IMG/VR virus record: IMGVR_UViG_3300018080_000090
Span: 1 to 26,263 of that record
DNA length: 26,263 bases
Direction: 5' to 3' (one strand)
Source: a virus
Each line of letters opens with the position of its first letter. The stretch's first letter is position 1. Of the stretch, positions 1 to 26,263 are shown in pieces. A program made the translations under genes and the position numbers. The notes under the pieces were generated by a model. It worked only from the letters and a program-made list of their open reading frames with translations, was not told the DNA's origin and searched no databases.

Positions 1-123
1 GAAACAGCCTTGGGTATGGCTTATGTTCTTAAAACTCTTGAATTGATTAAGAAATTGAAACCAAAGTTTTTCTTTATAGAAAATCCAAGAGGAGTTTTAA
101 GAAAGATGGCTTTTATGGATGAA
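1..123. repeat. Terminal direct repeat (assembly overlap), identical to 26141..26263
   Basis: Base-by-base comparison: GAAACAGCCTTGGGTATGGC...GGCTTTTATGGATGAA is identical at both window ends over 123 nt. Confidence 0.95.
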
Positions 124-420
124 ATTTCAATTAGAAATACAGTAACCTATTGTCAATATGGAGATACAAGGATGAAGCCAACAGATATTTGGACTAATTG
201 CAGTTTTTGGAAACCGAAACCAATGTGCAAGAATGGAGATAGTTGTCACACTCCTGCACCAAGAGGATCAAAAACTGGAACTCAAGGTTTAAATGGAAGC
301 AAAGGTCGATCACGTGTTCCTGAAAAACTATGTTTAGAAATTTTAAAAAGCTGTGAGCAACTAATCGCAAATCCCTCTACTTTGCCTAACGGCAATCCTA
401 ACGGAGAGTTTAAAAAATGA
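1..420 (+). CDS. DNA (cytosine-5) methyltransferase, 3-prime part of the gene that starts at 25892 (wraps the circle)
   Basis: The frame is continuous with 25892..26263 once the 123-nt overlap is collapsed. Contains IENPRG (motif VI-like), TYCQYGDTRMKPTDIW (motif VIII-like) and RSRVPEKLCLEI (motif X-like). Joined length is about 222 aa. Confidence 0.9.
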   Translation, partial: ETALGMAYVLKTLELIKKLKPKFFFIENPRGVLRKMAFMDEISIRNTVTYCQYGDTRMKPTDIWTNCSFWKPKPMCKNGDSCHTPAPRGSKTGTQGLNGSKGRSRVPEKLCLEILKSCEQLIANPSTLPNGNPNGEFKK

Positions 421-3990: not shown

Positions 3991-4052
3991 GAACTAGTAT
4001 TAGTCCTATAATAAAACCTAAAGCAGCGACTAGAAGTTTCCACCATACTATA

Positions 4053-5515: not shown

Positions 5516-5527
5516 CTTATTACATAA

Positions 5528-5552: not shown

Positions 5553-5582
5553 CATTACCAATACCTTTTATGCACATAGATG

Positions 5583-5881: not shown

Positions 5882-5883
5882 AG

Positions 5884-8274
5884 ATGGCAGTAAGATTGGT
5901 TGAAGGCGGACTACAATCTTACGATCCAGGTCAACTTGGAAAAACTACTATTAAGAAAGGCACAACAACTCCAACAAGGAAAACGTCAAGTGGTTCTTCT
6001 TCTCGGACACAACCAACTCCAACCCCTGCACAAACTACAACTGTAACTCAAGTACAAACAGCTGAACAGGCACAAGCAGCAGCAGAACTTGCAGCAATAG
6101 AAAGACAGCGTGATATTATAGTAAGGTCTGGTGGTGCTGTTGGTCAAACAATAAGAGGCTACGATTATAAAACAAACCAACCATTACAAATCGATACAGT
6201 AAGGAAAGGTTCCAAATCTGTAACCCAAGTAAGGAACATTGAAACAGGTGAAGTAACATTAAAAGAGTATGGTGTGGGAAGGGTTGGTGGTACTCCAGAT
6301 ATAAGGCGAGGTGTAGGATTTAAAGTTGAAAGAAAACCAACCCAAGAAGTAACAATAACAACTCAAGAAGAAATTGAACAACCGATAACTCCTTTTGTAG
6401 CAAGACCACCATTTACATTAAAAGGTTCGATTGCACAAAGTGGCTATATCGGCGGAACTCTTGATTTCTTCTCTGGCAAGATTGGAAATTTATACAAAGG
6501 AACAACATCTCAAGCATTACAATTCTATTCTAAAGAAACGCCAACAGCTTTAAAAGTTGGAACACCAGAATTTGTCAAACAAATACCCAAAGCTGTTGTA
6601 CAAAACATTGATTTAGGTACAGCTACAAGAACAGTTCCTTATTTTATTCCAGGAGTAGGTAGTGTATTACTTGCCGGGGAAGGTATCGAAACTGTTAAGA
6701 TGTCACCAACACTTGGAGGTAAGGCATTGGGAGTTGTTCAAATTGGTTTAGGTTCAATCTCTGGAGCACAAGCATTTAAGAAAGTAAAAGCTATACGTCA
6801 AACACAATTAATAAAAGATATAAAATTGCAACAAGTTCTAGGTGGAAGAGTAAAAGGTGATAAGGCAGGTGTGGATGTTTTAGTCGGTTATTCAAGAACA
6901 CAGCCAACAAGACTTGATAGAACAATATTTAATATAAAACCTGTTGAATCAATATCAATAATCAAACAACCATACATCGTCGATAGTAAAGGTGTTCTTT
7001 TAATTGATGGTAGAGGAACATCTATTACTCAAATTAATAATAAGATTTATGCAAAGTCTGTAAGAACAACTGGTTATGCAAACCAGCTAGAGGCTACTTC
7101 AAGGATTGGAAGGGGTAGAGTTGTTAAGGAAGTTCAGGCACAGGCAGGTATTGGGAGGATAAATGTTCAAGAACTTGCACAATTAGAGGCAACAATTAAA
7201 GGTGGAAGAATTACAGGCTTTACAATACCTTCCACTGGTAAAATAAGTACACCATTTATTGGTATCAGTAAAGAACAAGGAAATATTATTGGCGTTTTAT
7301 CTGGCACCCCAACTAAGGCTAGAATTGGTAATGGTGTTACTAGAATTACTGGCGATGTGAGAAATGTTGGAGCAATAAAGGTATTCGATATGTCTAGCTT
7401 ATCTGAAAGTTTAAGAGGTGGTGTTACTACTGTTGTAAAGACTGGTGGTAAACCTAGTACACCATTCCAGGAAGCATTGGTAAAGCAGGTGACACAAACA
7501 ACATTACCAAAAGTTACAACGCCTGCAACTAGCTTAACTCAAACATTATCACCCGCTCCTGCAGCAGTTACTCAATCATTTAAACAACAACAATCAACTT
7601 ATTATGGGACAGGACAATATGAAAGAACACAAGGTAGTGGAACTTTAACTGTTCAGAAAACAAAACAGGAAACAAGTTTACTCCCTTCCACATCATTTAA
7701 TATTAAGAATTTACAGGTTCAATCTTTCCAACCAGCATTAGATACAAGAAGCAGAAATATAACAAGGCAAACAACTTCAACAGATTTAATAAGTGAAACA
7801 AGGTTGAGGCAATCCCCAGCAATATCCCAAACACCTACACAAAGTTCAGCATTAAAAACTCCACAATTACTAAAAACTTTTTTCCCTTCAACAGCATTTG
7901 TACCATCAACAAGGCCATCAATACAAGTAGCACCAAAACCTGTAGGAGGTTTCGCTTTCAAGTTTCCTAAATCTAAACAACCTAAAGCACCAAGAGTTGG
8001 AAGGTTTGGTGTACAGGTTCGAAGGTTTGGTAAGTTTAAAACTATAGGTTATGCACCAACATTAAAAGAAGCGTTCTCTATAGGTAAACAAAGAGTAACA
8101 CAAACACTTGGAGCAACGTTTAGAATACCAGGTGCAAGTGCTAGAGAGATTAAAGGGTTTAGAACCAAGAAAGAGAAAGGGCAAGTTCTTTACATCGAAC
8201 CAAGAGGAAGAAGATTGAAACGTGGTACAAAAGAAATTCCTGAAATAAATTTTTATCGAGGAATTAAGCGATGA
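5884..8274 (+). CDS. Large T/Q/G-rich soluble protein with a strongly basic C-terminal domain (796 aa); putative virion component
   Basis: ORF track. No TM segment. Low-complexity TSSGSSSRTQPTPTPAQTTT and TQ/PS-rich linkers. The C-terminal ~110 aa are rich in K/R (RVGRFGVQVRRFGKFKTIGY...RGRRLKRGTKE). Confidence 0.85.
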   Translation: MAVRLVEGGLQSYDPGQLGKTTIKKGTTTPTRKTSSGSSSRTQPTPTPAQTTTVTQVQTAEQAQAAAELAAIERQRDIIVRSGGAVGQTIRGYDYKTNQPLQIDTVRKGSKSVTQVRNIETGEVTLKEYGVGRVGGTPDIRRGVGFKVERKPTQEVTITTQEEIEQPITPFVARPPFTLKGSIAQSGYIGGTLDFFSGKIGNLYKGTTSQALQFYSKETPTALKVGTPEFVKQIPKAVVQNIDLGTATRTVPYFIPGVGSVLLAGEGIETVKMSPTLGGKALGVVQIGLGSISGAQAFKKVKAIRQTQLIKDIKLQQVLGGRVKGDKAGVDVLVGYSRTQPTRLDRTIFNIKPVESISIIKQPYIVDSKGVLLIDGRGTSITQINNKIYAKSVRTTGYANQLEATSRIGRGRVVKEVQAQAGIGRINVQELAQLEATIKGGRITGFTIPSTGKISTPFIGISKEQGNIIGVLSGTPTKARIGNGVTRITGDVRNVGAIKVFDMSSLSESLRGGVTTVVKTGGKPSTPFQEALVKQVTQTTLPKVTTPATSLTQTLSPAPAAVTQSFKQQQSTYYGTGQYERTQGSGTLTVQKTKQETSLLPSTSFNIKNLQVQSFQPALDTRSRNITRQTTSTDLISETRLRQSPAISQTPTQSSALKTPQLLKTFFPSTAFVPSTRPSIQVAPKPVGGFAFKFPKSKQPKAPRVGRFGVQVRRFGKFKTIGYAPTLKEAFSIGKQRVTQTLGATFRIPGASAREIKGFRTKKEKGQVLYIEPRGRRLKRGTKEIPEINFYRGIKR

Positions 8275-9080
8275 GTTCAGAACCATTTTATCCACCTTAC
8301 AATCAGATGAACGACCAAGCTATGATCAATAATCAACTTAACCAAGGTAACGCTGCTGCAGCACAAACAGCACAAATGCAATACCAGATGGAAGAGGTAG
8401 AAAAAAACCTTGCATCAGAACAACTTGATTGTGATAAACTAATAAACGAATTGTATCATAACCTTAAACAAGATATACTTAAACCTAACCTTGAAAAAGG
8501 AGGGATACTTGATTGGACACAACTCGCTGACCAAACAAAAAGGATACTGACTGACGAAGGTGTTGATAAGATAATGCAGATTATGAAGAATTATATTAAC
8601 AAAGAAACGTTATTATCTAACTTTGATGAAAATCAAATTAAAAGAAGAATGAAAGAATTTAGACTTGCTTTCTCTGGATTAGTTTTTATGAAGTATGAAA
8701 ATATATTTAGAACACCAACGATGAATGAATGCAGGGATATATTAAATGAAAGGATAAACCAACGAATAGAGAAAGAGAAAATGAGGGCAGAGTTATTTCA
8801 TAGAGATTTGGATATTAAAAGTATAGTTGATAAAGTTTTAAATGAGGCAGAGAAACAGTTTGATTATGAGCTTGATAAGATTAAGAGTGTTAAGACTTCT
8901 GAGAATTTAAGAGAATTTGTGATGATGTTCACACACCTAAGCCACTTAGTAGAATCAATACACAACCGAGCATGGAAGGGTGAAGAAAGAGGTAGCCTGA
9001 GAAGACACTTTAATATTAATGAGGTCATAGGTGGCCAATCTAGAGAACAGCCACGCAAGAAAAGGTGGGGGATATTTTAA
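8271..9080 (+). CDS. Hypothetical helical soluble protein (269 aa)
   Basis: ORF track. ATGA overlap with the upstream gene. No motif recognisable by eye. Confidence 0.8.
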   Translation: MSSEPFYPPYNQMNDQAMINNQLNQGNAAAAQTAQMQYQMEEVEKNLASEQLDCDKLINELYHNLKQDILKPNLEKGGILDWTQLADQTKRILTDEGVDKIMQIMKNYINKETLLSNFDENQIKRRMKEFRLAFSGLVFMKYENIFRTPTMNECRDILNERINQRIEKEKMRAELFHRDLDIKSIVDKVLNEAEKQFDYELDKIKSVKTSENLREFVMMFTHLSHLVESIHNRAWKGEERGSLRRHFNINEVIGGQSREQPRKKRWGIF

Positions 9081-9893
9081 ATGAAAAGATTATTATTAAT
9101 TCTGGTTTTGGTATTAGTAATAACATTATCAACTGCACAACCACCACTAACAACAGTACTAGTATTTCCTGAAGGGTACAATTTTGCAGAGATTAATTAC
9201 CAGGAAATTAAGGTTGGAGAAAATTTCACATATTTCTTTTATCTATTCAATTCAAGCACAGGATTAAAAATAGATAATGAAACAGTTAATTGTACATTCT
9301 ATATGACAGATAGTAAAGGTAATATTTTAATTAATGCTGCAGAAGTTTATCAACCCAATGGGTACTGGTACACAAACATTAGTGGAGATTTAATTGATGA
9401 GATTGGGTACTATTATTATGGAGTAGATTGTTCAAACGGATATGGAGGAGCATTGTCTGGGGTGTTTGAAGTTACATATACTGGTAGAGGAATTACCGAA
9501 GCACAATCAATATTATATTCAGTATTACTTGCAATAATGGTTTTATCATTCTTCTTAATATTTATTGGTATGAGTTACTTGCCACAATCGAACCACACAG
9601 ACGAACAAGGAAGACTGCTTCAAATAAGTTACCTTAAATATTTTAGAGTACCATTATGGATTTTTGCTTATTTCTTATTTGCAGGAATTTTGTTCATCTC
9701 GAGCAATATTGCTTTCGCATACTTAAACGAAGTGATGTTCGGTAAAACACTCTTTATGTTATTCACATTACTTATGGTGGTTTCACCGATAGTAATAATA
9801 CTATTAGTAATTAGTTTCTTTATCCAGTTCTTCCACGATAAAGAATTTCAAAGGTTACTTAACAGAGGCATAATGCCTGGAGGAGAATTATGA
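9081..9893 (+). CDS. Secreted glyco-type ectodomain protein with a multi-TM C-terminal half (270 aa)
   Basis: Signal-like N-terminus (LLLILVLVLVITLSTAQ). Several N-x-S/T sequons (NFT, NSS, NET, NCT, NIS). Four or more hydrophobic helices after residue ~145. GGTGGGGG SD upstream. Confidence 0.8.
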   Translation: MKRLLLILVLVLVITLSTAQPPLTTVLVFPEGYNFAEINYQEIKVGENFTYFFYLFNSSTGLKIDNETVNCTFYMTDSKGNILINAAEVYQPNGYWYTNISGDLIDEIGYYYYGVDCSNGYGGALSGVFEVTYTGRGITEAQSILYSVLLAIMVLSFFLIFIGMSYLPQSNHTDEQGRLLQISYLKYFRVPLWIFAYFLFAGILFISSNIAFAYLNEVMFGKTLFMLFTLLMVVSPIVIILLVISFFIQFFHDKEFQRLLNRGIMPGGEL

Positions 9894-10123
9894 TGGCAAA
9901 GATGAATAAGAATAAACTAAATATTAGTAAGCCGATAAGGTTACCATTACCAGTTGTGGCAGAGATTGATGCAGCACTTAACCAAAGGTTGAACAATAAA
10001 CTTATATCAAGGCGTGAAGCAAATTATGCAAGAGCTATGGAGTTAATAGGTAGAACGCCAGAGTGGAAACTTGCACTAGATAAACTGGCTAAACTTCCAA
10101 AGAAGGAGGACTTAAAATGGTGA
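9890..10123 (+). CDS. Hypothetical small protein (77 aa), possibly RHH-like
   Basis: ORF track with ATGA overlap. KPIRLPLPVVAEIDAALNQR resembles a strand-helix start. This is a weak call. Confidence 0.55.
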   Translation: MMAKMNKNKLNISKPIRLPLPVVAEIDAALNQRLNNKLISRREANYARAMELIGRTPEWKLALDKLAKLPKKEDLKW

Positions 10124-10371
10124 TTTGTAGAGGCTGCCAGAAAGAGATTAAAACAAAGGTAGAAAAGTATACGCATGTAGAAGATTATAATTGTGAGAGA
10201 AAAGAGAACGAAAGTTGGTGGCACTTAGCTTGTTTCGGTAAAGCAATGAATCGTGAACTTACTCAGTTAGAAAGAACGGCAGCAGTGATGCTAGGTAAAG
10301 CTGCAGTAATGTATAATAAATTGCCTGAAGAGTTCAGGCCTGAATCGGAGGAAGTGTTCACAGTAAAATGA
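10117..10371 (+). CDS. Cys/His-containing small protein (84 aa), possible zinc binder
   Basis: ORF track. CRGC...C...HLAC pattern. SD AAGGAGG at ~10103. Confidence 0.6.
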   Translation: MVICRGCQKEIKTKVEKYTHVEDYNCERKENESWWHLACFGKAMNRELTQLERTAAVMLGKAAVMYNKLPEEFRPESEEVFTVK

Positions 10372-10940
10372 GGAAATTGATTATTAAGAATAAACGAGGA
10401 GGAGTAGGTATGATCATCTTTGCGTTAGTACTACTAAGTGTATTAGTTCTGGGTTTTATCACAGTAATAGGATGGGCAGTATTAGATATTGCTAGTGACG
10501 AGATTACCCCTATAATGGAAGGCCTTGGTATGGTTGGAGATGTTAATCTCTCAGAAGCTTCACAATATTCATTCGGGGTTGCTGACACTTTTGTTCAGGC
10601 AATGCCCTGGTTAATAGCCTTTGGGTATGTGATGGCTTTGGTGTTTACTTTAGTGTTTGTGTTTGTTGTAGGGTATAACCCTCACCCAGCATTCATTGCA
10701 CTTTATGTGGCATTAATAATCTTAATAATATTTGGGTGTATTGTTATAAGTAATATGTATCAGGATATAATAGCAGGTGATGATGATGTTGCAGACAGAT
10801 TGGCTGAACAAACAATAATGACATTTTTAATAATACATTCGCCATTGATAATCGGATTTGTTGCGATTATGGGTGGGATACTAATGTTCACAATGAGGGC
10901 TGTTTCAGAAGGAGCACCTGTCGGAGGTTTCGGGATATGA
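10368..10940 (+). CDS. Polytopic membrane protein (190 aa) with an NKRG-hydrophobic N-terminus
   Basis: ORF track. 4-5 hydrophobic helices. The N-terminal KNKRGGVGMIIFALVLL resembles an archaeal class III (prepilin-like) signal. Confidence 0.75.
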   Translation: MRKLIIKNKRGGVGMIIFALVLLSVLVLGFITVIGWAVLDIASDEITPIMEGLGMVGDVNLSEASQYSFGVADTFVQAMPWLIAFGYVMALVFTLVFVFVVGYNPHPAFIALYVALIILIIFGCIVISNMYQDIIAGDDDVADRLAEQTIMTFLIIHSPLIIGFVAIMGGILMFTMRAVSEGAPVGGFGI

Positions 10941-13900
10941 AATCTAAATATATAATCTTTAGTTTGATATTGTTACTCTTAATCACAGTAGCAATTCCTG
11001 TAGCTAGTGCAGGAATAAGTAAAGAATTTACAAAAGATACACAGAAACAATTAATGTTAGAAGATGTTAAAACTAATTATGGTTATATAAACATTAAAGA
11101 AAAGGCATGGTACGATTTGTTTGGGTGGTGGGAGAAAGATGTTGCTAAACAAGAATTAACATCACATACCCCTGAATGTTTGATTAATTGTTATTCAGAA
11201 GGTAAGACTGAATTGTTTGTTAAAGGAAGATTGTTTGATAAGTTTGATTTTTATAACCGAAATTCTAAGGATGTTAATGTCGATTATAAAATTTATATCA
11301 AAGAAAAAGAATATTATGATGTAGAAGTTCCTGACACTTATAAAGAAGTTTGTGAAGAAGATACAAACATTACTAAAGATTTAAAAGAACTAGAAAAAGA
11401 ACCTTTCTGTTATCAAGATGTCGCAACTTACAAGACTGAAAAAAGAGAAAAAAATGTTTGGGTTGAGTATGATTATAGTATTTTAGATGAAGGAGTTTAC
11501 GAGTGGCGAATTGAAGGGACTAAAGGTAAAAACACTAATGTTGATTGGATTGGTACTTCTTTTGGAGTTAAGCTGGAAGAGTGGGCGTGGTGGAATAGTT
11601 CTTGGCAATACAAAAAAAAGATTAATCTTTCAACAGCGTCAGGTTCAACAGGAACTGATTATCAGATAACATTAAACGTTAGTTACGAATCTGCAATGGA
11701 GTCAGATTTTGATGATTTAAGATTCTTAAATTCTGATGAAGATACAGAACTGGATTACTGGATTGAAACTAAAGAAGATGATGAGTGGGCTTTAGTATGG
11801 GTAGAAATTGATTCTGATATTACAACAAGCACAAGTTCAATCTATATGTATTATGGGAATAGTGGTGCATCCTCTACTGCAAATGTTTCTGAAACTTTCA
11901 TCTTTGGTGATGATTTCTCTACAAATACTAGTAGTAGCTGGGATGGTAATTATGTATCTGGTGGGACTGACCCATTATTATGGAATAGTGAAGATGGTAC
12001 TATGTATATAGAACAGAGTTATGGTGGAGGGCATAGAATATTTATGCCAACATCTGCGAATATTTCTATAGAAGGAAATCGTAGAGTCATAACAAGAACA
12101 ATGACAAATTCTAATAGTGTTCAGGGCAGACCCGGAATTTCAGCATTCAATGTTACTGCAGGAAATATAAACAACCTAAACCCAATATTAAGGGGAGATA
12201 GTGGACAAAACACGTTTCAGGTAGAAATAATCAATAATGGAGCTGGGTCAAATGTAGATACTGGCGACCATATTGAACCTAATGTTTTCTATCCGATGCA
12301 ATTTGTACAGAATGACCAAGTGTATAGTATATATTATGGTGCGAACTATTCAGACAATAGTTCATATTCTAATAGTTTAGCGTATTTTACTAATCGAACA
12401 TTCCCAACAGCAAATAGATTAACTGTACCTTACGCAGGGCTTTATGTTAGAAAATTAGCAAGTGTTGTTGCATGGGATTATTTCCTTGTAGCAAGTTATT
12501 CAGGTAATGAACCAACAATTACTGTTGGTGCTGAAACAGCAAACAAGGCAACACCAACATTAAATTATACATTAGATAAATCTTCACCACAAACATACGG
12601 AACTACAATTAACTTTGACTGTTCTACTGACAGCAACGGAACTTTAGCATTTTACATTAACGATACAGATTTTACTGCTTCGCTTGGGAATGATATTACT
12701 TTGGGTGGAGGTTACTGGGAACTTAAATGTAACGTGACAGAAAACGATTACTGGCAAGGAAAAACAAACACTACATATTTTCAAATTGATAATGCAACTG
12801 CGGTCGGAAGTTGCACAGGAACATCTCCAATAGCACAAGGAACTTCAGCGAATGTTGAATGTACTGAATCAAATAGTGGTGACGGTGATTTGACTTATAA
12901 CTTATACCGTAATGGAACTTTGGTCGATAATCCTGATTTAAATAATTCTTTGGCGATTGATACTTATTATTATGTGTATAACACAACTGGAGGTGCAAAC
13001 TATTCAGCAACAAACCCAATAGATACCTTTACTCTTGAAGTGATTGAAGCACCGGGAATTTCAACTGTACTTAAAACACCAAATACTACTTACAATAGTT
13101 CAACTCCATACATAAATTTTACAGCGAATGTTACGGCAGTTGGTGGTGCGAGAGTAGATAATGCAACACTTACGATCTGGAACTCTAGCGATAATAGTGT
13201 TTATGATACAAAATTTACAGCCTTGGAAACTTATAGTAACACTTTTGAATGGAACGTTACAGGGTTAGATGATGGTAATTATCTTTGGAACGTGGAAGGT
13301 TGTGCAAACGATTCTACTGCTGGTTGTGCATCAGCAGTAAGCAATAGAACTTTTACAATTGATACAGTTAAGCCGATAATATCTATTTTTTATCCAGAAA
13401 ATGATGCAGTTTATAATAGTATAAATAATCTTAGTTACAATTATGCCGACGCTACTCTTGGTTGGTGCTGGTACAGTAAAGACGCTGGAACAACAAATTA
13501 TACAGCGGTTAGTAGTGGCACTAATTTTACAGGAGTAACTTCTACAGGATTAAACAATCAATGGTTCTTGTATTGTAATGATAGTGCAGGAAACTTGGCA
13601 GTTGATGACGTGAATTTTACTGTTAATAAGATTGCGGTTACTTTGGATACACCTTCTGATACGTCGATAGTTTATACTTCAACAGTAGGTTTTAATGTGT
13701 CAAGTTCAATGAATGACTTAACAGCAAACATTACTAACATGACTGCTTACTCAAACGAGAGTGGGACATGGAAAACATTATATCAAATAAACTCTACCTC
13801 ACAGTTCGATGGTTCTACACTTCCAACTGCTGCATTAGATGATACTAATTATACAATCGAACTTCTAAATCATAGTAGTAAAGTAAAGAATGTTACATTA

Positions 13901-16000
13901 TATTTATGGCAGTCTGGAGCATCATCACCAGTTAGAGCATGGGTAGAATTCCATTACACAAACGGTACAGATTTTAATACATCGTATCAAGAGACATCTT
14001 CAACAACAGGAGAACTATTAACATTCACACCACAATACTTAAACGAGAAAATGGACTCAATTGAAGTATGGTATAATGCGAGTGGTGGAACTAATAGAGC
14101 GAATGTTAGAAATATCACAATCAATAAACGACCACAAGATTATGAGTTCTATTTTAATAGTGTTTTTAGTTCGGGCGAAACAATCTTATGGAACGCTTAT
14201 GTTTGTGATGATACTGGCTTCTGTCAGTTCTCGAATACAAACAGTACATTCACTATGGATAGTGTTGCACCAGTAATAGAAGTTACATCACCTTTAACTG
14301 AAACATACTTGTATGAAGGGAAAACGCTTAACCTTAATTGGACTGTGACTGATACCAATACGGATAGTTGTTGGTACAATTATAATGGTACTAATAATAC
14401 TGTAACTTGTGGAGATTCGACGACCACATTTAGTTATGCAACAGGAGAGAATGACTTAATATTTTATGCGAATGATACTGTAGGTAATCTAGGAAGTGAG
14501 GCAATAACAATATCATATTATTCACAATTATTATCTGAGGCCTATGAAACACCAGTAACTTCAGGAGTAATAGCAGGTTTTGATTTGGATATATTAACTA
14601 ACGGAACTCAGATAACACTTGCGTATCTTTATTATAATGGTACAAGGTATCTGGGAACAATTAGTTCAACTGGTAATACTTACAATATAACCAGAAACCA
14701 ATTCATACCAGCAGTGACAACGACCACTAATATCAGTTTCTACTGGAACGTTACACTTAGTGGTGGTACAACATTTACTACAGCTGAACATAATCAAACA
14801 GTAAACCCATTAGGAATTTCAACAGTGTGTACTGGTAACAGAACAATATTCAACTTTACAATGTATGACGAGGTTGAGAGAACATACATAAACGAAACAG
14901 AATATAGTACATTAATCAAAATGGATATGAGTATTTATTCAAGCGATAGGAATAATATTATATCTAATTATAGTACAAACTTTACAGAAACTAACCCAGC
15001 ACAGATATGTATAAATAGTAACCTTACAGATAATGAAATATATTCAATAGATTTACAGGTAGAATATTCAGCAACAAATTATTCTACAGAGTTTTATAAC
15101 TTGTACAATTACACGCTAACTAATGAAAGTCTTGACAATAATATTAGTTTGTATGATTTGGATAGTGATAATACTCAAGAGTTTAAACTGAATGGTAGGG
15201 ATAGTTCATACTTGCCACTTTCAGACGCATTGATACATATTGAAAGAAAGTATATAGATACAGGAGAGTTTAAGGTCGTTGAGATTCCAATGACTGATGA
15301 CTTAGGTGTGGCTGTTGCATCATTACAATTGAATGATGTGATTTATAATTTTAAAGTTTACAAGTATGGTGTATTACTTAGGCAAGTTAATAATGTGAAA
15401 GCTATTTGCCAAACGCCTCTAGTTTCAACGTGCCAGATAGATTTTAATGCTTTCCAGACTGGAATAGAAATGCCAGACTTTACAGAAGGTGATGATTTTA
15501 ATTTTGATATTGGGTACAATAAAAGTAGTAGAATATTAACGGCACAATATTCTATACCGTCAGGAGAACCGTCAACTGTGGAATTAGTTGTAACAAGTTC
15601 AAGCACTGTAAGGGAAGAGATTTGTACAGATACAATATTTTCCTCAAGCGGCTATTTATATTGTACAATCGGTGACAGTTTTGATAATCAAACAGTTACA
15701 GCAAAACTTTCTAAAGATGGTACACTGCAAGGGACAGGGCAAATTAACCTGGGTAAAGATTCTTCAGAAATTTATACAGTAATAATAGTATTCTTATCAT
15801 TACTTGTTTTTATGACACTAATAGGTATAGGCATCTCAGACAGTCCAGTGATAACGATGGTGTTCTTAGTTGTGGGGATAATCTTTATGTCGATGATAAG
15901 CCTGATTAATAGTAATGGATTCTTTGGTGCAGGTGCTACAATATTGTTTATTGGTATAGCAGTAGTAATATTCTTAATTAAAGCGGCGAGGCGTTCATAA
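10937..16000 (+). CDS. Giant surface/adhesin-like glycoprotein (1687 aa): signal peptide, DUF2341-like segment, lectin/LamG-like segment, Ig-like repeats, C-terminal triple-TM anchor
   Basis: N-terminal signal IIFSLILLLLITVAIPVASA. WAWWNSSWQYKKKINL...DDLRFLNSDEDTELDYWIE...ALVWVEI...IYMYYGN matches my memory of the DUF2341 signature (nt ~11580-11880). About 70 N-x-S/T sequons by hand count. Two similar modules: TFTIDTVKPIISI...CNDSAGN and TFTMDSVAPVIEV...ANDTVGN. Three hydrophobic helices at the C-terminus. Confidence 0.95.
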   Translation: MKSKYIIFSLILLLLITVAIPVASAGISKEFTKDTQKQLMLEDVKTNYGYINIKEKAWYDLFGWWEKDVAKQELTSHTPECLINCYSEGKTELFVKGRLFDKFDFYNRNSKDVNVDYKIYIKEKEYYDVEVPDTYKEVCEEDTNITKDLKELEKEPFCYQDVATYKTEKREKNVWVEYDYSILDEGVYEWRIEGTKGKNTNVDWIGTSFGVKLEEWAWWNSSWQYKKKINLSTASGSTGTDYQITLNVSYESAMESDFDDLRFLNSDEDTELDYWIETKEDDEWALVWVEIDSDITTSTSSIYMYYGNSGASSTANVSETFIFGDDFSTNTSSSWDGNYVSGGTDPLLWNSEDGTMYIEQSYGGGHRIFMPTSANISIEGNRRVITRTMTNSNSVQGRPGISAFNVTAGNINNLNPILRGDSGQNTFQVEIINNGAGSNVDTGDHIEPNVFYPMQFVQNDQVYSIYYGANYSDNSSYSNSLAYFTNRTFPTANRLTVPYAGLYVRKLASVVAWDYFLVASYSGNEPTITVGAETANKATPTLNYTLDKSSPQTYGTTINFDCSTDSNGTLAFYINDTDFTASLGNDITLGGGYWELKCNVTENDYWQGKTNTTYFQIDNATAVGSCTGTSPIAQGTSANVECTESNSGDGDLTYNLYRNGTLVDNPDLNNSLAIDTYYYVYNTTGGANYSATNPIDTFTLEVIEAPGISTVLKTPNTTYNSSTPYINFTANVTAVGGARVDNATLTIWNSSDNSVYDTKFTALETYSNTFEWNVTGLDDGNYLWNVEGCANDSTAGCASAVSNRTFTIDTVKPIISIFYPENDAVYNSINNLSYNYADATLGWCWYSKDAGTTNYTAVSSGTNFTGVTSTGLNNQWFLYCNDSAGNLAVDDVNFTVNKIAVTLDTPSDTSIVYTSTVGFNVSSSMNDLTANITNMTAYSNESGTWKTLYQINSTSQFDGSTLPTAALDDTNYTIELLNHSSKVKNVTLYLWQSGASSPVRAWVEFHYTNGTDFNTSYQETSSTTGELLTFTPQYLNEKMDSIEVWYNASGGTNRANVRNITINKRPQDYEFYFNSVFSSGETILWNAYVCDDTGFCQFSNTNSTFTMDSVAPVIEVTSPLTETYLYEGKTLNLNWTVTDTNTDSCWYNYNGTNNTVTCGDSTTTFSYATGENDLIFYANDTVGNLGSEAITISYYSQLLSEAYETPVTSGVIAGFDLDILTNGTQITLAYLYYNGTRYLGTISSTGNTYNITRNQFIPAVTTTTNISFYWNVTLSGGTTFTTAEHNQTVNPLGISTVCTGNRTIFNFTMYDEVERTYINETEYSTLIKMDMSIYSSDRNNIISNYSTNFTETNPAQICINSNLTDNEIYSIDLQVEYSATNYSTEFYNLYNYTLTNESLDNNISLYDLDSDNTQEFKLNGRDSSYLPLSDALIHIERKYIDTGEFKVVEIPMTDDLGVAVASLQLNDVIYNFKVYKYGVLLRQVNNVKAICQTPLVSTCQIDFNAFQTGIEMPDFTEGDDFNFDIGYNKSSRILTAQYSIPSGEPSTVELVVTSSSTVREEICTDTIFSSSGYLYCTIGDSFDNQTVTAKLSKDGTLQGTGQINLGKDSSEIYTVIIVFLSLLVFMTLIGIGISDSPVITMVFLVVGIIFMSMISLINSNGFFGAGATILFIGIAVVIFLIKAARRS

Positions 16001-16434
16001 TGGCTAACAGTACATTAACACTTACAATATCGTTGATGATGATTGCACTATTCAGTGTAGCAATACTAGGTTACGCTTTCAATTTCGCTGTAGAAAATGA
16101 TGCAGCAATCAGTGTGGCAGACGATCCAGCATACTCTTCACTTAATATATCTACAAGGGCAAACACTAGTACCTTCAACTCCGAATCAGAATCAACTTAC
16201 CAGTCAATCACTGAATCGGAAGTGAAAGAAGGTAGCGATGTTTTAACTTCGGCCAGCTCATTCACAGTAACAACTGGGAACGTTTTTAGTATTACTAAGA
16301 ATATATTTACTGTTGGGTACGAGAAAATATTTGGAGATGGTGACACATTTGGAATATTCTTAACAGCATTCTTTGGTGTGATTGGATTAATGTTTGCATT
16401 GTATGTGATTAAAACTTGGAGAGGGCAACCATAA
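16000..16434 (+). CDS. Membrane protein with N- and C-terminal TM helices (144 aa)
   Basis: ORF track. Its ATG overlaps the giant gene's stop (TAATG). S/T-rich middle region. Confidence 0.7.
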   Translation: MANSTLTLTISLMMIALFSVAILGYAFNFAVENDAAISVADDPAYSSLNISTRANTSTFNSESESTYQSITESEVKEGSDVLTSASSFTVTTGNVFSITKNIFTVGYEKIFGDGDTFGIFLTAFFGVIGLMFALYVIKTWRGQP

Positions 16435-16781
16435 TGGTAGACTACATTTACACACTGCCAAATTCTACAACGGGTATAGATTCAATAATTGGTCAAACAA
16501 TGAACTCAGGCGGTTCAATGGCATCGTTTATACCAGGTAGTATACTTTTCTTTATCTTCCTTGTAGTGTTTATTGGAGGCTCGACCAGGCAGAAAACAAG
16601 AACAGGAACAGCAGATTATTCAGCGTGGGCAGTCGTGGGTTCAGTTGCTACATTCTTTGTAGCACTATTAATGTCTATTAGTGCAGAATATATACAGCTC
16701 GATTGGTTATTAATTGTTGTTACACTAACGATAGGTTCTGTTACATGGTTCTTTCTTGATAGGAAAACGTCAGAAGTCTAG
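16434..16781 (+). CDS. Three-TM membrane protein (115 aa from the ATG at 16434; the track ORF starts at a TTG at 16416)
   Basis: The ATG at 16434 overlaps the upstream TAA. GGAGAGG SD lies ~10 nt upstream. Hydrophobic helices are seen in the translation. Confidence 0.7.
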   Translation: MVDYIYTLPNSTTGIDSIIGQTMNSGGSMASFIPGSILFFIFLVVFIGGSTRQKTRTGTADYSAWAVVGSVATFFVALLMSISAEYIQLDWLLIVVTLTIGSVTWFFLDRKTSEV

Positions 16782-16809
16782 TGTTACAATGTAACACCAT
16801 ATTTAAATA
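16781..16809 (+). promoter_or_regulatory. Palindromic operator GTGTTACAATGTAACAC (16781-16797) plus TATA box ATTTAAATA (16801-16809)
   Basis: Perfect 8+1+8 palindrome immediately upstream of a consensus-like TATA box. The downstream gene carries an AAGGAGG SD (16856-16862) 11 nt before its ATG. Confidence 0.6.
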
Positions 16810-16873
16810 ATGATTTAGTATTAATATTTGATGAGCTTTGATAAAAAATTTCTGAAAGGAGGTTCTAAATAAG

Positions 16874-17188
16874 ATGGAGAATAAGAGAGGACAGATGACT
16901 GGTGGATTAATTACTAGTCTAGTTTTTGGTGTTGCTTCTTTGGTAATCGGTGTCATAATCGCATTCGTTATTGTTTCTACACTAACAGGTGCTAACCTTT
17001 TGACAGCTGATGGTGCTGAGGATAACGCTACTGACAGACTTGCAGGAAACTTTACAACAGGTATTGATAATGTTTCTGGAAAAATACCAACAGTTTTACT
17101 GGTTGCTGCAATCGTTCTAATCCTTGGAGTTCTTGTGTTACTAGTTACACAGTGGCAAAGAATGAGGTTAGGCGGAGGCGGTATTTAA
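16874..17188 (+). CDS. Small two-TM hairpin protein (104 aa) with a class III signal-like N-terminus; candidate major virion (capsid) protein
   Basis: MENKRGQ followed by a ~28-aa hydrophobic helix, a polar loop with sequons (NAT, NFT, NVS), a second hydrophobic helix and a GGGG tail. It has its own TATA promoter, the best SD in the genome, and a T-tract plus hairpin terminator. Confidence 0.8.
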   Translation: MENKRGQMTGGLITSLVFGVASLVIGVIIAFVIVSTLTGANLLTADGAEDNATDRLAGNFTTGIDNVSGKIPTVLLVAAIVLILGVLVLLVTQWQRMRLGGGGI

Positions 17189-17200
17189 GTATCGTATAAA

Positions 17201-17277
17201 TTATTATTTTTATTATTTTTGTAAATAAAGTGGGAGAAACACTTGACACTCCCACTATAATCTTTTAAAATAAAGAT
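17201..17277 (+). terminator. Terminator region: T-rich tract followed by two hairpins
   Basis: TTATTATTTTTATTATTTTTG (17201-17221). 8-bp GC-containing stem AGTGGGAG/CTCCCACT (17229-17236 / 17249-17256). AT hairpin AATCTTT/AAAGATT (17258-17277). Confidence 0.55.
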
Positions 17278-17407
17278 TGGAAATTGAGAGAATTGCATAC
17301 AATAAAAAGAAAAGGATTGATATGAATGTGAAAGTGACTATTGAAATGAAAAAGCCTAGAAGGAAGTACCAACCATGTAATAAACTAGATATGGGAGGTT
17401 ACAGGTT

Positions 17408-17533
17408 ATGAGTAAATGGTCTGACGAGTTCATTGCAAGTTATAAAAGTACAAAGAAAGTTAGAGATTTGACTAAAGAATGTAAAAAAAAGTTAGATCTT
17501 CCAAAATATAAAACCAAAACTGGAAAGTTGTAA
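17408..17533 (+). CDS. Hypothetical basic mini-protein (41 aa)
   Basis: GGAGG at 17393-17397 lies ~11 nt upstream of the ATG. ATGA overlap with a 29-aa upstream micro-ORF (17322..17411). Below the ORF-track cutoff. Confidence 0.3.
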   Translation: MSKWSDEFIASYKSTKKVRDLTKECKKKLDLPKYKTKTGKL

Positions 17534-23276: not shown

Positions 23277-23503
23277 AAACCCAAACCGAGATAGTAGACG
23301 AAATTTTAAAAATGCCAAAACCACAATTTTCTCTAGCAAGAGAAGGAGTAATTATGACAGCCATCGCTTTACTCGAGGCACAACTTGAAGAAGCTAAATG
23401 GATTGAAAGTGCAATACGAAAAGAGAAGCCTTGTTTTGGTTATAATTTAGTAGAAGAAACCGAACACAATCTAAACCGACTGCGAGGTGAAAACAATGTG
23501 TGA
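23273..23503 (+). CDS. Hypothetical helical protein (76 aa)
   Basis: ORF track; ATGA-coupled. Confidence 0.6.
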   Translation: MKTQTEIVDEILKMPKPQFSLAREGVIMTAIALLEAQLEEAKWIESAIRKEKPCFGYNLVEETEHNLNRLRGENNV

Positions 23504-24143
23504 TTTCTATTCAGCAATCGTGACAAACAAAGGAGAAATATTGACAGACATTAGTCATAGCCACTCAACCATAAAATTAAAACATAATCTTGATGATACA
23601 AAAGATTTAGATAAACTTACTTTTTGCCCAATAGAGATACTACCAAAAGCTGGAAAGAATATTTGGGATAAACCTACCAAAGAAAACTGGACATTTCACT
23701 TAGGTGCTAGTAATTATAATTCCAAACAAGCCCCTAAATGGTGGAAGAATAGTTTTGAAAAAGATTGTTGGAATAAGTTTAAGGAAGATTGGAATCAACA
23801 AATACTTCTTAATAAAGAGATTGATAATATTGAAGGAAAGACTATTTATTTAATGAAAGATTGTAAAATTAAAACTCTTAAGAATTGTCAGGTTGGAAAG
23901 ATGTTTGGTAGCAGTCAGGTTAGAGAGATGTTTGGTAGCAGTCAGGTTAGAGAGATGTTTGGTAGCAGTCAGGTTGGAGCGATGTGGGATAATAGTCAGG
24001 TTGGAAAGATGCAATCAAAACAAACAACTATAAGAATTTTTGGATTAAAAGTCAAACTACCTCTATTAAAATTAGGAGTTATTATTGATTTTTCAAAAGA
24101 TAAAACTAAGGTTTTTATAGGAGATAAGGAGGCAGAAGAATGA
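23487..24143 (+). CDS. Protein with an MCDFYSAIV...SHS N-domain and C-terminal 9-aa tandem repeats (218 aa)
   Basis: ORF track. Repeats SQVGKMFGS / SQVREMFGS x2 / SQVGAMWDN / SQVGKM. The N-terminal MCDFYS...SHS...WW pattern resembles a widespread phage-borne family that I cannot name. Confidence 0.75.
   Translation: MKTMCDFYSAIVTNKGEILTDISHSHSTIKLKHNLDDTKDLDKLTFCPIEILPKAGKNIWDKPTKENWTFHLGASNYNSKQAPKWWKNSFEKDCWNKFKEDWNQQILLNKEIDNIEGKTIYLMKDCKIKTLKNCQVGKMFGSSQVREMFGSSQVREMFGSSQVGAMWDNSQVGKMQSKQTTIRIFGLKVKLPLLKLGVIIDFSKDKTKVFIGDKEAEE
23887..24011 (+). repeat. 27-bp in-frame tandem repeat, ~4.6 copies
   Basis: Units start at 23887, 23914, 23941, 23968 and 23995. Units 2 and 3 are identical (GTCAGGTTAGAGAGATGTTTGGTAGCA). 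Confidence 0.9.
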
Positions 24144-24798: not shown

Positions 24799-25134
24799 AT
24801 GCAAAGTCACCAACTAAACGCCATTTATACGGAGAGACCATCTATAAAAGTTGCAACTTCCCAAATTTGTTCCGATTTGGTTTTAGGTAAGTCTGGGAGC
24901 ATTGTTGGTGACCCCTCTTTCATAAACACTGCAGTGGAGAGGGTTATATTTTCAAACTACACATTTCAAAGTGTATGGGACAAAGGAAAAACTCAAACCC
25001 CGTTGCACTCTCGCTTCGCTCGGGTCAGTGAATGTCTGGTTAGTAGTTCGTCGTTGCACTTCCTCACCCGAATTGGCTTCGCCAACTCTACTAAACTAAA
25101 TATTAAACCTAATCAGAAGGAGTTGCTCCAATGA
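24799..25134 (+). CDS. Hypothetical protein (111 aa) of atypical composition; coding status uncertain
   Basis: ORF track. ATGA-coupled to the downstream MTase. It is S-rich and K/E-poor and lies in a GC-rich island, unlike the other genes here. Confidence 0.35.
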   Translation: MQSHQLNAIYTERPSIKVATSQICSDLVLGKSGSIVGDPSFINTAVERVIFSNYTFQSVWDKGKTQTPLHSRFARVSECLVSSSSLHFLTRIGFANSTKLNIKPNQKELLQ

Positions 25135-25895
25135 CTAAATTCAGAATACTAATCGCTTGTGAAGAAAGCCAGGAAGTTTGTAAAGCATTTAGGGAGTTAG
25201 GACACGAAGCATATTCTTGCGATATTTTACCTTGTAGTGGAGGTCATCCTGAATGGCACATACAAGGAGATGTTCTCCCTATTTTAGAACAAGAGTGGGA
25301 TATGGTTATTGCACATCCACCATGCACCTATTTATCTACTGCAGGAATAAGGTGGTTTAATATTGAGAGGTATGGAGATAAGGCAAGAGAAAGATATAAA
25401 TTAAGAGATGAAGCATTGGAGTTTTTCCTCAAAATATATAACTCAAAATGTAAATTTATAGCTGTAGAAAATCCAAGAGGTTTTGTAAGTTCTATGTTTA
25501 GAAAACCAGACCAAATAATCCAACCTTGGCAATTTGGAGATTCATTCAATAAACCAACTTGCCTATGGTTAAAAGGATTGCCAAAGTTAAAGCATACAAA
25601 AATTGTAGATAAAGGAGAAATGGTTACACATATAACAAAAAAAGGAAAGAAAAAAACAGATAGTAAATGGTATTATGAAGCATTTAGTTTGCCTCCAAAA
25701 GAAAGAGCAAAATTCAGGAGTAAAACATTTCTAGGAATAGCACAAGCGATGGCTAAACAATGGTCAGAATATCTTGAGCAACAATCGGTGGCTGACTTTA
25801 CTTCGGCTACGCCTACACCCAAAGATGCTTCGCATCCTTCTCATCACCCTAATATTAAATCCAATAGAGGGATTTGCTCCCAGCGATTAAAATGA
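25131..25895 (+). CDS. C5-cytosine DNA methyltransferase-like protein (variant motif I)
   Basis: ILIACEESQEVCKAF (variant N-terminal motif). HPPCTYLS (motif IV PC dipeptide). VENPRGF (motif VI). QPWQFGDSFNKPTCLWLKGLP (motif VIII-like). RSKTFLGIAQAMAKQW (motif X-like). SD AGAAGGAG at 25116-25123. Confidence 0.85.
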   Translation: MTKFRILIACEESQEVCKAFRELGHEAYSCDILPCSGGHPEWHIQGDVLPILEQEWDMVIAHPPCTYLSTAGIRWFNIERYGDKARERYKLRDEALEFFLKIYNSKCKFIAVENPRGFVSSMFRKPDQIIQPWQFGDSFNKPTCLWLKGLPKLKHTKIVDKGEMVTHITKKGKKKTDSKWYYEAFSLPPKERAKFRSKTFLGIAQAMAKQWSEYLEQQSVADFTSATPTPKDASHPSHHPNIKSNRGICSQRLK

Positions 25896-26263
25896 AGATA
25901 CTTGAACTTTTTTCAGGAACAGAAAGCTTTTCTAATGTAGCAAGAGCAAGAGGACATCAAGTTTTTACAATAGAAAATAATTCAGACTTTAATCCAAGTC
26001 TTTGTAAAAACATTCTTGATGTCACAATTAAAGATATTCCATTTAAACCTGATGTAATCTGGGCTTCTCCTCCTTGCACTTGTTTTAGTGTTGCGTCAAT
26101 AGGTTCAAGTTGGTGTGGTAATTATCATCCAAAAAGAACAGAAACAGCCTTGGGTATGGCTTATGTTCTTAAAACTCTTGAATTGATTAAGAAATTGAAA
26201 CCAAAGTTTTTCTTTATAGAAAATCCAAGAGGAGTTTTAAGAAAGATGGCTTTTATGGATGAA
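25892..26263 (+). CDS. DNA (cytosine-5) methyltransferase, 5-prime part (continues at window position 124..420 after collapsing the overlap)
   Basis: Its ATG overlaps the upstream stop (ATGA at 25892-25895). Motif I ILELFSGTESFS. Motif IV ASPPCTCFS. Motif VI FIENPRG lies in the repeated segment. Confidence 0.9.
   Translation, partial: MKILELFSGTESFSNVARARGHQVFTIENNSDFNPSLCKNILDVTIKDIPFKPDVIWASPPCTCFSVASIGSSWCGNYHPKRTETALGMAYVLKTLELIKKLKPKFFFIENPRGVLRKMAFMDE
26141..26263. repeat. Terminal direct repeat (assembly overlap), identical to 1..123
   Basis: Same comparison as for 1..123. Confidence 0.95.

Follow-up and report, generated by a model that had tools for sequence, protein, structure and literature searches.

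The coat proteins of spindle-shaped archaeal viruses, exemplified by SSV1 VP1 and His1 VP21, share a compact architecture of about 70-100 aa, in which two hydrophobic helices are joined by a short polar loop bearing sequons and the C-terminus is basic. For SSV19 VP1, a topology has been reported in which the termini lie inside and the loop outside (PMC9351363). SSV1 VP1 is made as a precursor, and mutagenesis revealed that the five residues preceding the cleavage site are essential, while the E66Q and E66A mutants are still infectious; the same work lists the VP1-processing protease as unknown (PMC5748691). In an S. islandicus pibD mutant, infection is blocked already before genome replication, and because the block precedes genome replication, that study leaves VP1 processing unsettled (PMC7217056). 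Newly published spindle viruses reach profile-profile probabilities of 95-99% (PMC9796341).

Here we analysed the 26,263-nt IMG/VR record IMGVR_UViG_3300018080_000090, referred to in full as the window, in which an initial annotation had singled out a stand-alone gene for a 104-aa two-helix protein as a candidate major virion protein of the spindle-virus type. Our analysis indicates that this gene probably encodes the major virion structural protein of an uncultivated archaeal virus with a circular dsDNA genome of ~26 kb.

Results

The element is circular and has metagenomic relatives

The window carries a 123-bp direct terminal repeat, indicating a complete circular element of 26,140 bp; its viral status is taken from IMG/VR membership and gene content only. 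Its IMG/VR relatives comprise three contigs of 25-29.5 kb, in one of which the gene for the two-helix protein (hereafter the hairpin protein) is split across the ends. Scans of the hairpin protein and more than 20 neighbours against Pfam, PHROGs and NCBIfam returned only DUF2341, a resolvase and methyltransferases. No recognisable capsid, portal, terminase or polymerase gene was found in the element, and longer related contigs (37-38 kb) contained no recognisable host-type genes by Pfam within ±10 kb of the ATPase gene. Among the related loci, the structural module is conserved and the modules for replication and integration around it differ.

The host is probably a low-GC DPANN archaeon, as judged from weak binning evidence. 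The window and its relatives gave no matches in Rfam and tRNA scans and therefore no attachment-site clue to the host. Our search of the literature on DPANN, Woesearchaeota or Pacearchaeota viruses yielded nothing relevant with such a protein, and we know of no virus isolates from Pacearchaeota or Woesearchaeota.

The gene encodes a predicted membrane hairpin

We found that the protein is built as the initial annotation had described it: an N-terminus of MENKRGQ, two hydrophobic helices separated by a loop with three sequons, and a glycine tail (LGGGGI). Hydropathy maxima fall at approximately residues 10-44 and 66-95, and an AlphaFold2 model (pLDDT 74.7) contains helices at residues 5-39, 52-68 and 71-100. 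The sequons are N51-A-T, N59-F-T and N66-V-S, with N59 the most conserved across the wider family, and the sequon-bearing loop is predicted from the model to face outward. A Foldseek search with this model returned 0 PDB matches and only noise from BFVD, and a sequence search of the PDB with the family profile likewise gave no match. The positions of these and the other features of the locus are collected in Table 1.

Table 1. Features of the hairpin-protein locus and related positions in the window.
Feature	Position	Strand	Remark
CDS, two-helix hairpin protein, 104 aa	16874-17188	+	founding family member
Leader MENKRG, ends R-G	16874-16891	+	predicted class III-type cleavage G6/Q7
Hydrophobic helix 1, ~residues 10-38	16901-16987	+	AlphaFold2, hydropathy
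Polar loop, three N-glycosylation sequons, short helix	17024-17077	+	AlphaFold2, alignment
Hydrophobic helix 2, ~residues 71-94, opens with conserved KIPT	17084-17155	+	AlphaFold2, hydropathy
Basic patch and glycine tail QRMRLGGGGI	17156-17185	+	family consensus W-Q-R-M-R-x-G-G-G-x-[IL]
Polytopic membrane protein, 190 aa	10368-10940	+	[KR][KR][GA]-hydrophobic N-terminus, Gly-rich tail ending I
Conserved module neighbours	10937-16781	+	1687-aa surface protein; small membrane proteins, 144 and 121 aa
Palindrome GTGTTACAATGTAACAC, perfect, 17 nt	16781-16797	.	first base = final base of upstream stop codon
13-nt palindrome core GTTACAATGTAAC	16783-16795	.	matches family motif GTWACAWTGTWAC
TATA-like box TTTAAATA	16802-16809	+	within palindromic TATTTAAATA
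Shine-Dalgarno AAGGAGG	16856-16862	+	11 nt 5' of ATG at 16874
T5 runs, two	17207-17211, 17216-17220	+	19-33 nt 3' of stop codon
Two adjoining 8-bp hairpins	17229-17236/17249-17256 and 17258-17265/17272-17279	+	fold z = -1.75
Second 13-nt motif copy GTTACAGTGTAAC, one mismatch	5625-5637	.	head of + strand structural operon
Other TATA-like intergenic regions	2402, 5545(-), 17821(-)		

Expression signals are conserved among related loci

The palindrome, TATA box, AAGGAGG, T-tract and double hairpin on which the initial annotation had based its view of strong, independent expression are all present. The accompanying statement that this is the only gene in the window with its own signals was too strong, given the TATA-like sequences in other intergenic regions (Table 1). 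The proposed leader of ~45 nt is a length deduced from the spacing to the TATA box.

Taken alone, the palindrome is unremarkable: an equally good one occurs in ~30% of simulated 26-kb sequences of the same composition. TTTAWATA is not enriched in the window (13 observed vs 11.8 expected), and the double hairpin has just a modest folding advantage over shuffled sequences (z value in Table 1). It is on comparison with relatives that the expression signals exceed chance. In 9 of 10 related loci, GTWACAWTGTWAC precedes the hairpin-protein gene just 5' of a TATA-like box, mostly as a single copy per locus of 5-20 kb, where a base-composition estimate predicts ~0.05 chance matches over all related loci combined. 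A TATA-like A/T box occupies the equivalent position in the related loci, GGAGG precedes the first ATG by 6-11 nt in all 10, and most loci have T-rich tracts after the last paralogue; the related locus L004 keeps the first hairpin, with differences confined to the loop. The GTWACAWTGTWAC-type core just 5' of the TATA box is a probable regulator binding site, and the T5 runs likely act as an archaeal oligo-T terminator.

The hairpin gene is the best-conserved gene of the element

The hairpin-protein family comprises 708 clusters, all from metagenomes, with 342 representatives at 50% identity; no description of it or of the virus group was found in the literature searched or in Pfam, PHROGs or NCBIfam. 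Close relatives are 76-89% identical among the matches listed. Across related elements the gene shows 58-89% identity, as against 28-68% for the other core genes. Relatives carry one to four tandem copies of it: the short forms are highly conserved, whereas the long forms are highly diverse and contain a sequon-rich loop insert of ~90 aa. In addition, the C-terminal half recurs in relatives as the anchor of a Laminin_G_3 (lectin-domain) protein and of a fibre-like protein. The combination of conservation and tandem paralogues suggests that the protein makes lattice contacts.

The small size, the two membrane helices and the pilin-like leader would also suit a membrane protein with a role outside the particle, for instance as a holin or pore-former, in superinfection exclusion, or as a pilin-like remodeller of the host surface, and some members gave weak, sub-threshold matches to holin and small membrane protein families. 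Such a role is very improbable for the most conserved gene of the element, whose paralogues bear large exposed inserts and whose anchor is common to lectin and fibre-like proteins. Furthermore, no lytic-enzyme Pfam match occurred among the ORFs scanned, and the gene is the last of the conserved membrane-protein and adhesin module, which it closes outside any early or lysis cassette.

That module includes a 1687-aa adhesin-like protein, which is rich in sequons, contains DUF2341 (with Laminin_G_3 in relatives) and has a signal peptide and C-terminal membrane helices. It also includes two small membrane proteins of 144 and 121 aa. The neighbouring 190-aa polytopic protein is the one in which the initial annotation had noticed a similar N-terminus; the motif is indeed present, and homologues of the protein share it. 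Comparison of the polytopic protein with the hairpin family by hhalign gave a probability of 43% (P = 2.4e-4), and by this measure it may be a distant paralogue of the hairpin protein. We also considered it as a viral prepilin peptidase and rejected this identity: it has no Peptidase_A24 match and no GxGD motif.

A module rich in membrane proteins and equipped with a giant spike-like protein raises a further alternative, in which the hairpin, with its predicted glycosylated loop, would serve as the major membrane protein in a pleomorphic virion that is lipid-enveloped and buds from the cell, as in pleolipoviruses, rather than as a capsid subunit. Pleolipoviruses, like the related loci here, combine variable replication and integration functions with a conserved structural module (bioRxiv 10.1101/2021.07.29.453957). 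The comparison with HRPV-1 makes this alternative improbable: hhalign gave 0.1% against each of VP3 and VP8, and genomes of 26-38 kb are far above the HRPV-1 record (7,048 nt). The conservation and tandem paralogues, which hint at a lattice, also speak against it. To our knowledge, all known pleolipoviruses are far smaller than 26-38 kb.

The element's only P-loop protein is a 347-aa minus-strand ATPase with a C-terminal helix-turn-helix region. Its alignments by hhalign with His1 ORF16 and SSV1 B251 were not significant; that with ORF16 covered only the Walker A region (probability 40%), and BLASTP was also not significant. An AlphaFold2 model of the ATPase (pLDDT 73.8) found no PDB match below E = 0.1 with Foldseek, and a PDB sequence search with its profile found none. 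Searches of 50,697 phage and archaeal virus records by tblastn likewise yielded nothing useful for the 1687-aa protein or the ATPase.

Together, the top conservation, the position in the module, the conserved signals, the tandem paralogues and the reuse of the anchor lead us to read the gene as encoding a major virion protein, most likely the principal shell or membrane protein in an archaeal virus group that is widespread and undescribed.

The leader follows a class III-like pattern

The prepilin-like N-terminus proposed in the initial annotation is well founded as a sequence pattern. Of 264 family members, 232 have [KR][GA] directly in front of helix 1 (G in 202, A in 30), the exceptions including a few members with S at -1, or with Q, N or I at -2. 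Leaders vary in length from 4 to 46 aa, and some paralogues are leaderless, beginning at the predicted mature end. Position -1 is G or A and Q7 is invariant among close relatives; across the family the +1 residue is Q (or G, A, V). Some Methanococcus EppA substrates also have Q at this position. By these patterns the leader behaves as a cleaved signal would, with cleavage predicted after the [KR][GA] pair; alternatively, the basic-Gly motif could serve simply as a positive-inside signal plus a helix cap. Class III signal and pilin N-terminal models gave no match in the Pfam or NCBIfam output.

We found the same pattern in five fusellovirus VP1 precursors (SSV1, SSV2, SSV-RH, SSV-K1 and SSV4), in which leaders of roughly 14-66 aa run up to a [KR][GA]/E site and the conserved hydrophobic part follows. 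It is conceivable, if on balance doubtful, that the hairpin family and fusellovirus VP1 are both matured by the host prepilin-type (class III) signal peptidase. Nothing relevant that connects class III peptidases with the coat proteins of viruses emerged from a literature search.

Conjugative pilins, too, are generally built as a cleaved leader followed by two hydrophobic helices, and 10 of 32 members weakly matched Pfam T4SS_pilin (best E = 0.012), as might be seen if the gene encoded a VirB2/TrbC-type conjugative pilin of a plasmid. We consider this extremely unlikely: all of the T4SS_pilin matches fell short of the threshold, domains of the VirB4, VirB6 or coupling-protein type were absent from the window and from the seven related loci examined, and the sole P-loop protein is the ATPase of 347 aa with its helix-turn-helix region.

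The family is separate in sequence from spindle-virus coat proteins

The hairpin protein fits the spindle-coat architecture outlined above, and we asked how far it can be matched to these coats as a true, very divergent homologue of the His1/SSV1 type, in a virus with spindle-shaped particles. The window protein gave no match at E <= 10 to Pfam His1_capsid (PF25665) or VP1_VP3 (PF06281) and none in PHROGs or NCBIfam, and neither Pfam family was in the best 25 of the 60 families matched when 32 members were scanned; as positive controls for the Pfam scan, His1 VP21 gave 1.5e-37 and SSV1 VP3 1.8e-38. By hhalign, the family reached probabilities of 8.2% and 6.8% against the His1 family and 0.3% against SSV1 VP1/VP3, vs the published 95-99%. 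A tblastn search of the 50,697 phage and archaeal virus records with the hairpin protein was empty, and the ATPase matches His1 ORF16 at the Walker A motif only.

Several observations nevertheless favour homology. The size class, the two helices, the sequon loop, the proline opening helix 2 and the W/Y plus basic residues past it all correspond; hhalign aligns the full hairpin in register with His1 (P = 0.004), and only 4 of 200 architecture-preserving shuffles match the real score. The [KR][GA] cut-site pattern is common to fusellovirus VP1, and SSV1 VP1 itself reaches only E = 0.027 against His1_capsid, so that links between coat families of this type are hard to establish by sequence. Coat paralogues with an adhesin and an ATPase also reproduce the wyrdvirus layout (bioRxiv 10.1101/2021.07.29.453957). 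Weighing both sides, we regard true homology with the His1/SSV1 coats as unlikely. Of the original proposal of a spindle-type major virion protein, the structural role is supported by comparative evidence; the similarity to spindle coat families, for which an HMM comparison had been proposed, is not supported.

Discussion

Our results suggest the following model for the hairpin protein as a major virion protein. A strong promoter, controlled by a GTWACAWTGTWAC-binding factor, would drive solo transcription of the gene. The precursor would enter the host membrane as a helical hairpin, with both basic ends cytoplasmic and the loop outside, where it may be N-glycosylated. A host class III (prepilin-type) signal peptidase might then trim the short basic leader after [KR]-[GA]. 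Many copies would form the particle wall around the DNA at the membrane, and particles would exit without lysis. Paralogues with enlarged loops, and lectin-domain and fibre-like proteins with the shared C-terminal half, could join the lattice and display their outer domains. We found no significant sequence or profile similarity between the hairpin protein and known virion proteins.

The hairpin gene offers a compact, highly conserved marker for finding such elements, and the lectin and fibre-like proteins anchored through its C-terminal half point to a way in which such virions could display host-recognition domains. The [KR][GA] pattern held in common with fusellovirus VP1 makes the question of the SSV1 coat protease directly testable, Sulfolobus being tractable. 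If the proposals made here are correct, archaeal membrane-assembled viruses borrow the pilus-biogenesis protease for making their coats, and the long-sought SSV1 VP1 protease gets a name. Likewise, the gene would be the hallmark of a new, globally distributed virus family of DPANN archaea, whose lattice accommodates modular paralogues together with anchored lectin and fibre proteins.

Like archaeal class III signal proteins, the hairpin protein has a short basic leader that carries K/R at -2 and G/A (rarely S) at -1, and the hydrophobic helix straight after it would stay in the mature protein; unlike them, the hairpin protein is encoded by a virus-like element. Type IV pilins and archaellins have a globular domain where the hairpin family has a second membrane helix, a feature that, together with GG at +3/+4, is atypical of pilins.

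The likeness to SSV1 VP1/VP3 is closer. In both, the mature part (a predicted one for the hairpin family) measures ~73-98 aa and consists of two hydrophobic helices, a loop bearing sequons and a basic C-terminus that is short; each is made as a precursor whose poorly conserved leader, variable in length, ends in the sequence pattern [KR][GA] immediately ahead of the conserved hydrophobic part; both may have tandem paralogues, and both adjoin a large end-filament or adhesin gene. The predicted hairpin topology also agrees with that reported for SSV19 VP1 (PMC9351363). The hairpin family differs in the predicted short loop helix, in a glycine tail with I or L as its last residue, and at +1, where fuselloviruses have E and the hairpin family Q (or G, A, V). 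Furthermore, SSV1 makes a shared VP1-VP3-VP2 transcript in Sulfolobus, whereas the hairpin gene has its own promoter and terminator signals and its probable host is a low-GC DPANN archaeon.

His1 VP21 and the hairpin protein are both encoded by small stand-alone genes between non-coding spacers, and both proteins have ANLL after helix 1, a sequon in the loop, P opening helix 2, and W then basic residues past helix 2. In addition, each genome encodes, on the minus strand, a P-loop ATPase whose C-terminal part contains a helix-turn-helix region. VP21, however, is without a basic-Gly leader, and the His1 genome is linear with a protein-primed polymerase, whereas the element is circular. Wyrdviruses, which are likewise metagenome-only viruses from sediments, encode small two-helix coat proteins, one or two per genome, together with an adhesin, an uncharacterised morphogenetic block, an ATPase and variable replication modules, as the element and its relatives do; compared by description only, their coats are recognisable His1 homologues, unlike the hairpin family (bioRxiv 10.1101/2021.07.29.453957). 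From these comparisons, we conclude that the hairpin protein resembles SSV1 VP1 and His1 VP21 in architecture and precursor design, and by sequence is a separate family.

A conserved two-helix protein with modular relatives

The 104-aa protein contains two strong hydrophobic segments, and an AlphaFold2 model (pLDDT 74.7) places helices at residues 5-39, 52-68 and 71-100; the loop carries three sequons and the tail reads QRMRLGGGGI. Both sequence and model match the protein described in the initial annotation, with two hydrophobic helices, a three-sequon loop and a Gly tail. We found that 708 clusters match this protein at E <= 0.01. The 120 of these matches listed are 102-122 aa long with 76-89% identity, and none of the 120 has a Pfam assignment. 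When 1.8 billion representatives were searched with a profile, 342 matched at E <= 0.001.

Related elements share a conserved core, a membrane-protein and adhesin module corresponding to 2568 to 17188, within which the coat-like gene is the best conserved (58-89% identity; the remaining core genes, 28-68%). Genes for replication, integration and methylation differ from element to element. For integration or transposition, the window encodes a serine recombinase (1361-2005), the 37-38 kb relatives small tyrosine integrases (L019 13053-13550; L020 12050-12637), and other relatives a DDE transposase (L001 14339-15223); glycosyltransferases and a radical SAM enzyme occur in some relatives.

The window has a single copy of the coat-like gene, and relatives often have two to four in tandem. 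The family comprises two length classes: a short form of ~100-115 aa with few clusters, and a very diverse long form of ~175-218 aa, which keeps the helix 1, loop-helix, helix 2 and tail of the short form and has a ~90-aa sequon-rich insert in the loop. The C-terminal half (NFTxGVDNVSxKIPT, helix 2 and the glycine tail) also forms the C terminus of two other proteins: a 484-aa Laminin_G_3 protein in the related locus L004, and a 249-aa protein whose N terminus we take to resemble that of a phage tail fibre. A tightly constrained core subunit, display versions that vary and accessory proteins sharing its anchor are what would be expected of a protein forming a virion lattice or matrix. These same three features would not be predicted of a holin or exclusion factor. 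From comparative genomics, the initial proposal that the coat-like protein is the major virion protein is well supported, although unproven.

Features of the coat-like gene and loci of its tandem paralogues and anchor-sharing proteins
Feature	Position	Remarks
Perfect palindrome GTGTTACAATGTAACAC	16781-16797	First base is the last base of the preceding gene's stop codon
TATA-like octamer TTTAAATA	16802-16809	Upstream of coat-like gene
AAGGAGG	16856-16862	11 nt ahead of ATG
Coat-like ORF, 104 aa	16874-17188	ATG at 16874
Two T5 runs	17207-17220	Downstream of coat-like ORF
Two 8-bp hairpins	17229-17256 and 17258-17279	Downstream of T5 runs
Tandem paralogue/anchor loci	L001 10344-10916; L004 3697-5151; L006 4424-5102; L007 9653-10883; L008/L013 10001-10599; P0260	In related loci or sequences

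Expression signals of the coat-like gene

Every element initially listed for this gene (palindrome, TATA-like box, AAGGAGG, T-tract, double hairpin and ORF) was found in the sequence. Taken alone, none of the signals goes beyond chance: an equally good palindrome arises in ~30% of simulated sequences of the same size and composition, the TATA octamer is no more frequent in the window than expected, and the double hairpin folds modestly better than shuffles (z = -1.75). We then aligned the sequences preceding the gene in ten related loci. The 13-nt core GTWACAWTGTWAC, which usually occurs once per locus, lies a few bases 5' of the TATA-like box before the coat-like gene in nine of the ten, and GGAGG precedes the ATG in all ten; in most related loci, the last gene copy is followed by T-rich tracts. 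Because they are conserved before and after the gene in relatives, the signals are more than chance, and this conservation argues that the coat-like gene is a separately regulated, monocistronic unit, with a transcript leader whose length we infer. The claim that no other gene has its own signals was too strong, as TATA-like boxes occur in other intergenic regions too.

A second copy of the 13-nt motif with one mismatch (GTTACAGTGTAAC, 5625-5637) heads the long plus-strand structural operon, with a possible TATA on one side (about 5603-5612) and an alternative ATG on the other (5642); the operon and the coat-like gene may have a regulator in common. Upstream of a conserved 252-aa gene (2568-3326), TTTAAATA is directly followed by a perfect 16-nt palindrome, TGTTATAATTATAACA (together 2402-2427), whose half-sites TGTTA/TAACA are similar to those of the coat-gene motif. 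The first hairpin (AGTGGGAG...CTCCCACT) is kept in L004 (about 10345-10375) with only its loop changed, and may not be the terminator, since it lies downstream of the T-tracts. After the hairpin region comes a basic ORF of 41 aa (17408-17533), which has a GGGAGG of its own.

The element and its host

Positions 1-123 of the window are an exact copy of 26141-26263; this 123-bp direct terminal repeat shows that the window holds a complete genome of 26,140 bp, either circular or terminally redundant, with a GC content of 30-38%. Most of its genes returned no database match. Matches were obtained for methyltransferases, for a serine recombinase and for the DUF2341 domain of a 1687-aa protein, which is rich in sequons and has a signal peptide as well as membrane helices at its C terminus. 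The minus strand encodes a 347-aa P-loop protein that has a helix-turn-helix region at its C terminus; its gene diverges from the structural operon. A C5-methyltransferase-like ORF (25892..26140 joined to 1..420) spans the genome junction and overlaps, in ATGA, the stop codon of another methyltransferase-like ORF (25131-25895). The 796-aa protein (5884-8274) is rich in T, S, Q and P with a strongly basic end region, and the extremely basic 125-aa product of 3323-3700 is overlapped in another frame by an acidic 99-aa ORF (3435-3734); all three are possible DNA-binding or scaffold proteins. The product of 23487-24143 contains a short tandem peptide repeat, GKMFGSSQVREMFGSSQVREMFGSSQVGAMWDNSQVGKM.

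Three related contigs of 25-29.5 kb are present in IMG/VR, and in one of them the coat-like gene is split over the contig ends. Among species-representative genomes, the gene is on six contigs, binned with Pacearchaeota (two), Woesearchaeota, Methanosarcinales, Mycoplasmatota and a Bacteroidales MAG (one each), which weakly suggests DPANN hosts. Neither tRNA genes nor recognisable host-type genes were seen in the stretches examined. The carriers are apparently a widespread, undescribed group of archaeal viruses.

A pilin-like leader

Q7 does not vary among close relatives, which have G or A at -1; the residues before -1 differ in sequence and number. In the wider family, where leaders measure 4-46 aa and +1 is Q, G, V, A or another residue, 232 of 264 proteins have [KR][GA] no more than 14 residues before the hydrophobic core (G in 202, A in 30); in most exceptions, -1 is S or -2 is Q, N or I. 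Leaders are absent from some long forms, which start no more than a few residues from the predicted mature end (e.g. MAQGLVYGLV, MARGLIVG). Judged by sequence, the leader has the pattern of an archaeal class III signal peptide, in keeping with the prepilin-like N terminus first proposed. However, three features count against such a peptide: GG is at +3/+4, a second membrane helix takes the place of the globular domain, and curated class III signal models returned no match when the coat-like proteins were scanned. The basic-Gly leader could instead be a plain positive-inside signal.

The similar N terminus noted for the polytopic protein at 10368 was confirmed: this 190-aa protein (10368-10940) and its homologues have [KR][KR][GA] before helix 1, as in the coat-like family, and their Gly-rich tails end in I or V (GGFGI, GGGI). 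The two groups align weakly (hhalign probability 43%, 92 columns). The 270-aa protein (9081-9893) ends in a related ...PGGEL / ...PGGNI.

Comparison with spindle-virus coat proteins

We took the sequences of His1 VP21 and SSV1 VP1/VP3 from their genome records. Their architecture is that of the coat-like protein, and they share with it ANLL-like residues after helix 1, a sequon-bearing loop, a proline at the start of helix 2, and aromatic and basic residues after helix 2. The predicted topology also agrees with the SSV19 structure, in which the loop forms the shell outside and both termini line its inside (PMC9351363). The expected similarity to spindle-virus MCP families did not materialise in HMM comparison: His1_capsid and VP1_VP3 gave no match for the 104-aa protein, nor were they among the 25 families most often matched, of 60 in all (32 members scanned), and hhalign probabilities against the His1 family were 8.2% and 6.8%, with 0.3% for SSV1, versus 95-99% for new spindle viruses in print (PMC9796341). 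Of 200 shuffles preserving helix-loop-helix, four scored as well as the real alignment. Membership in the His1/SSV1 coat families was therefore not accepted. Pleolipovirus VP3 and VP8 showed no similarity to window proteins. Because these sequence tests fail, we file the coat-like protein with neither virus group; it represents a new family of proteins within a functional class already known, and probably works like the SSV1/His1 coat proteins.

SSV1 VP1 is made as a precursor whose mature end is Glu66; leaders differ among fuselloviruses (15 to 66 residues), the five residues ahead of the site are essential, infectivity is retained in E66Q and E66A mutants, and the protease is reported as unknown (PMC5748691). 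An S. islandicus pibD mutant is not infected by SSV9, but the block precedes genome replication (PMC7217056), and so this mutant is uninformative on VP1. Our literature search found no paper tying the VP1 site to the prepilin peptidase PibD. We translated VP1 from five fuselloviruses (SSV1, SSV2, SSV-RH, SSV-K1 and SSV4), and found that [KR][GA] directly precedes the conserved Glu at the known cleavage site in all five precursors (KLTKG|E, KSKKA|E, KLRRA|E, KLTRG|E, RITKG|E). Archaeal prepilin peptidases recognise this [KR][GA] motif. Processing of the coat-like protein by such a peptidase is plausible, and gains from the fusellovirus parallel: in VP1, [KR][GA] is followed by a conserved hydrophobic helix, which is the design of the coat-like family.
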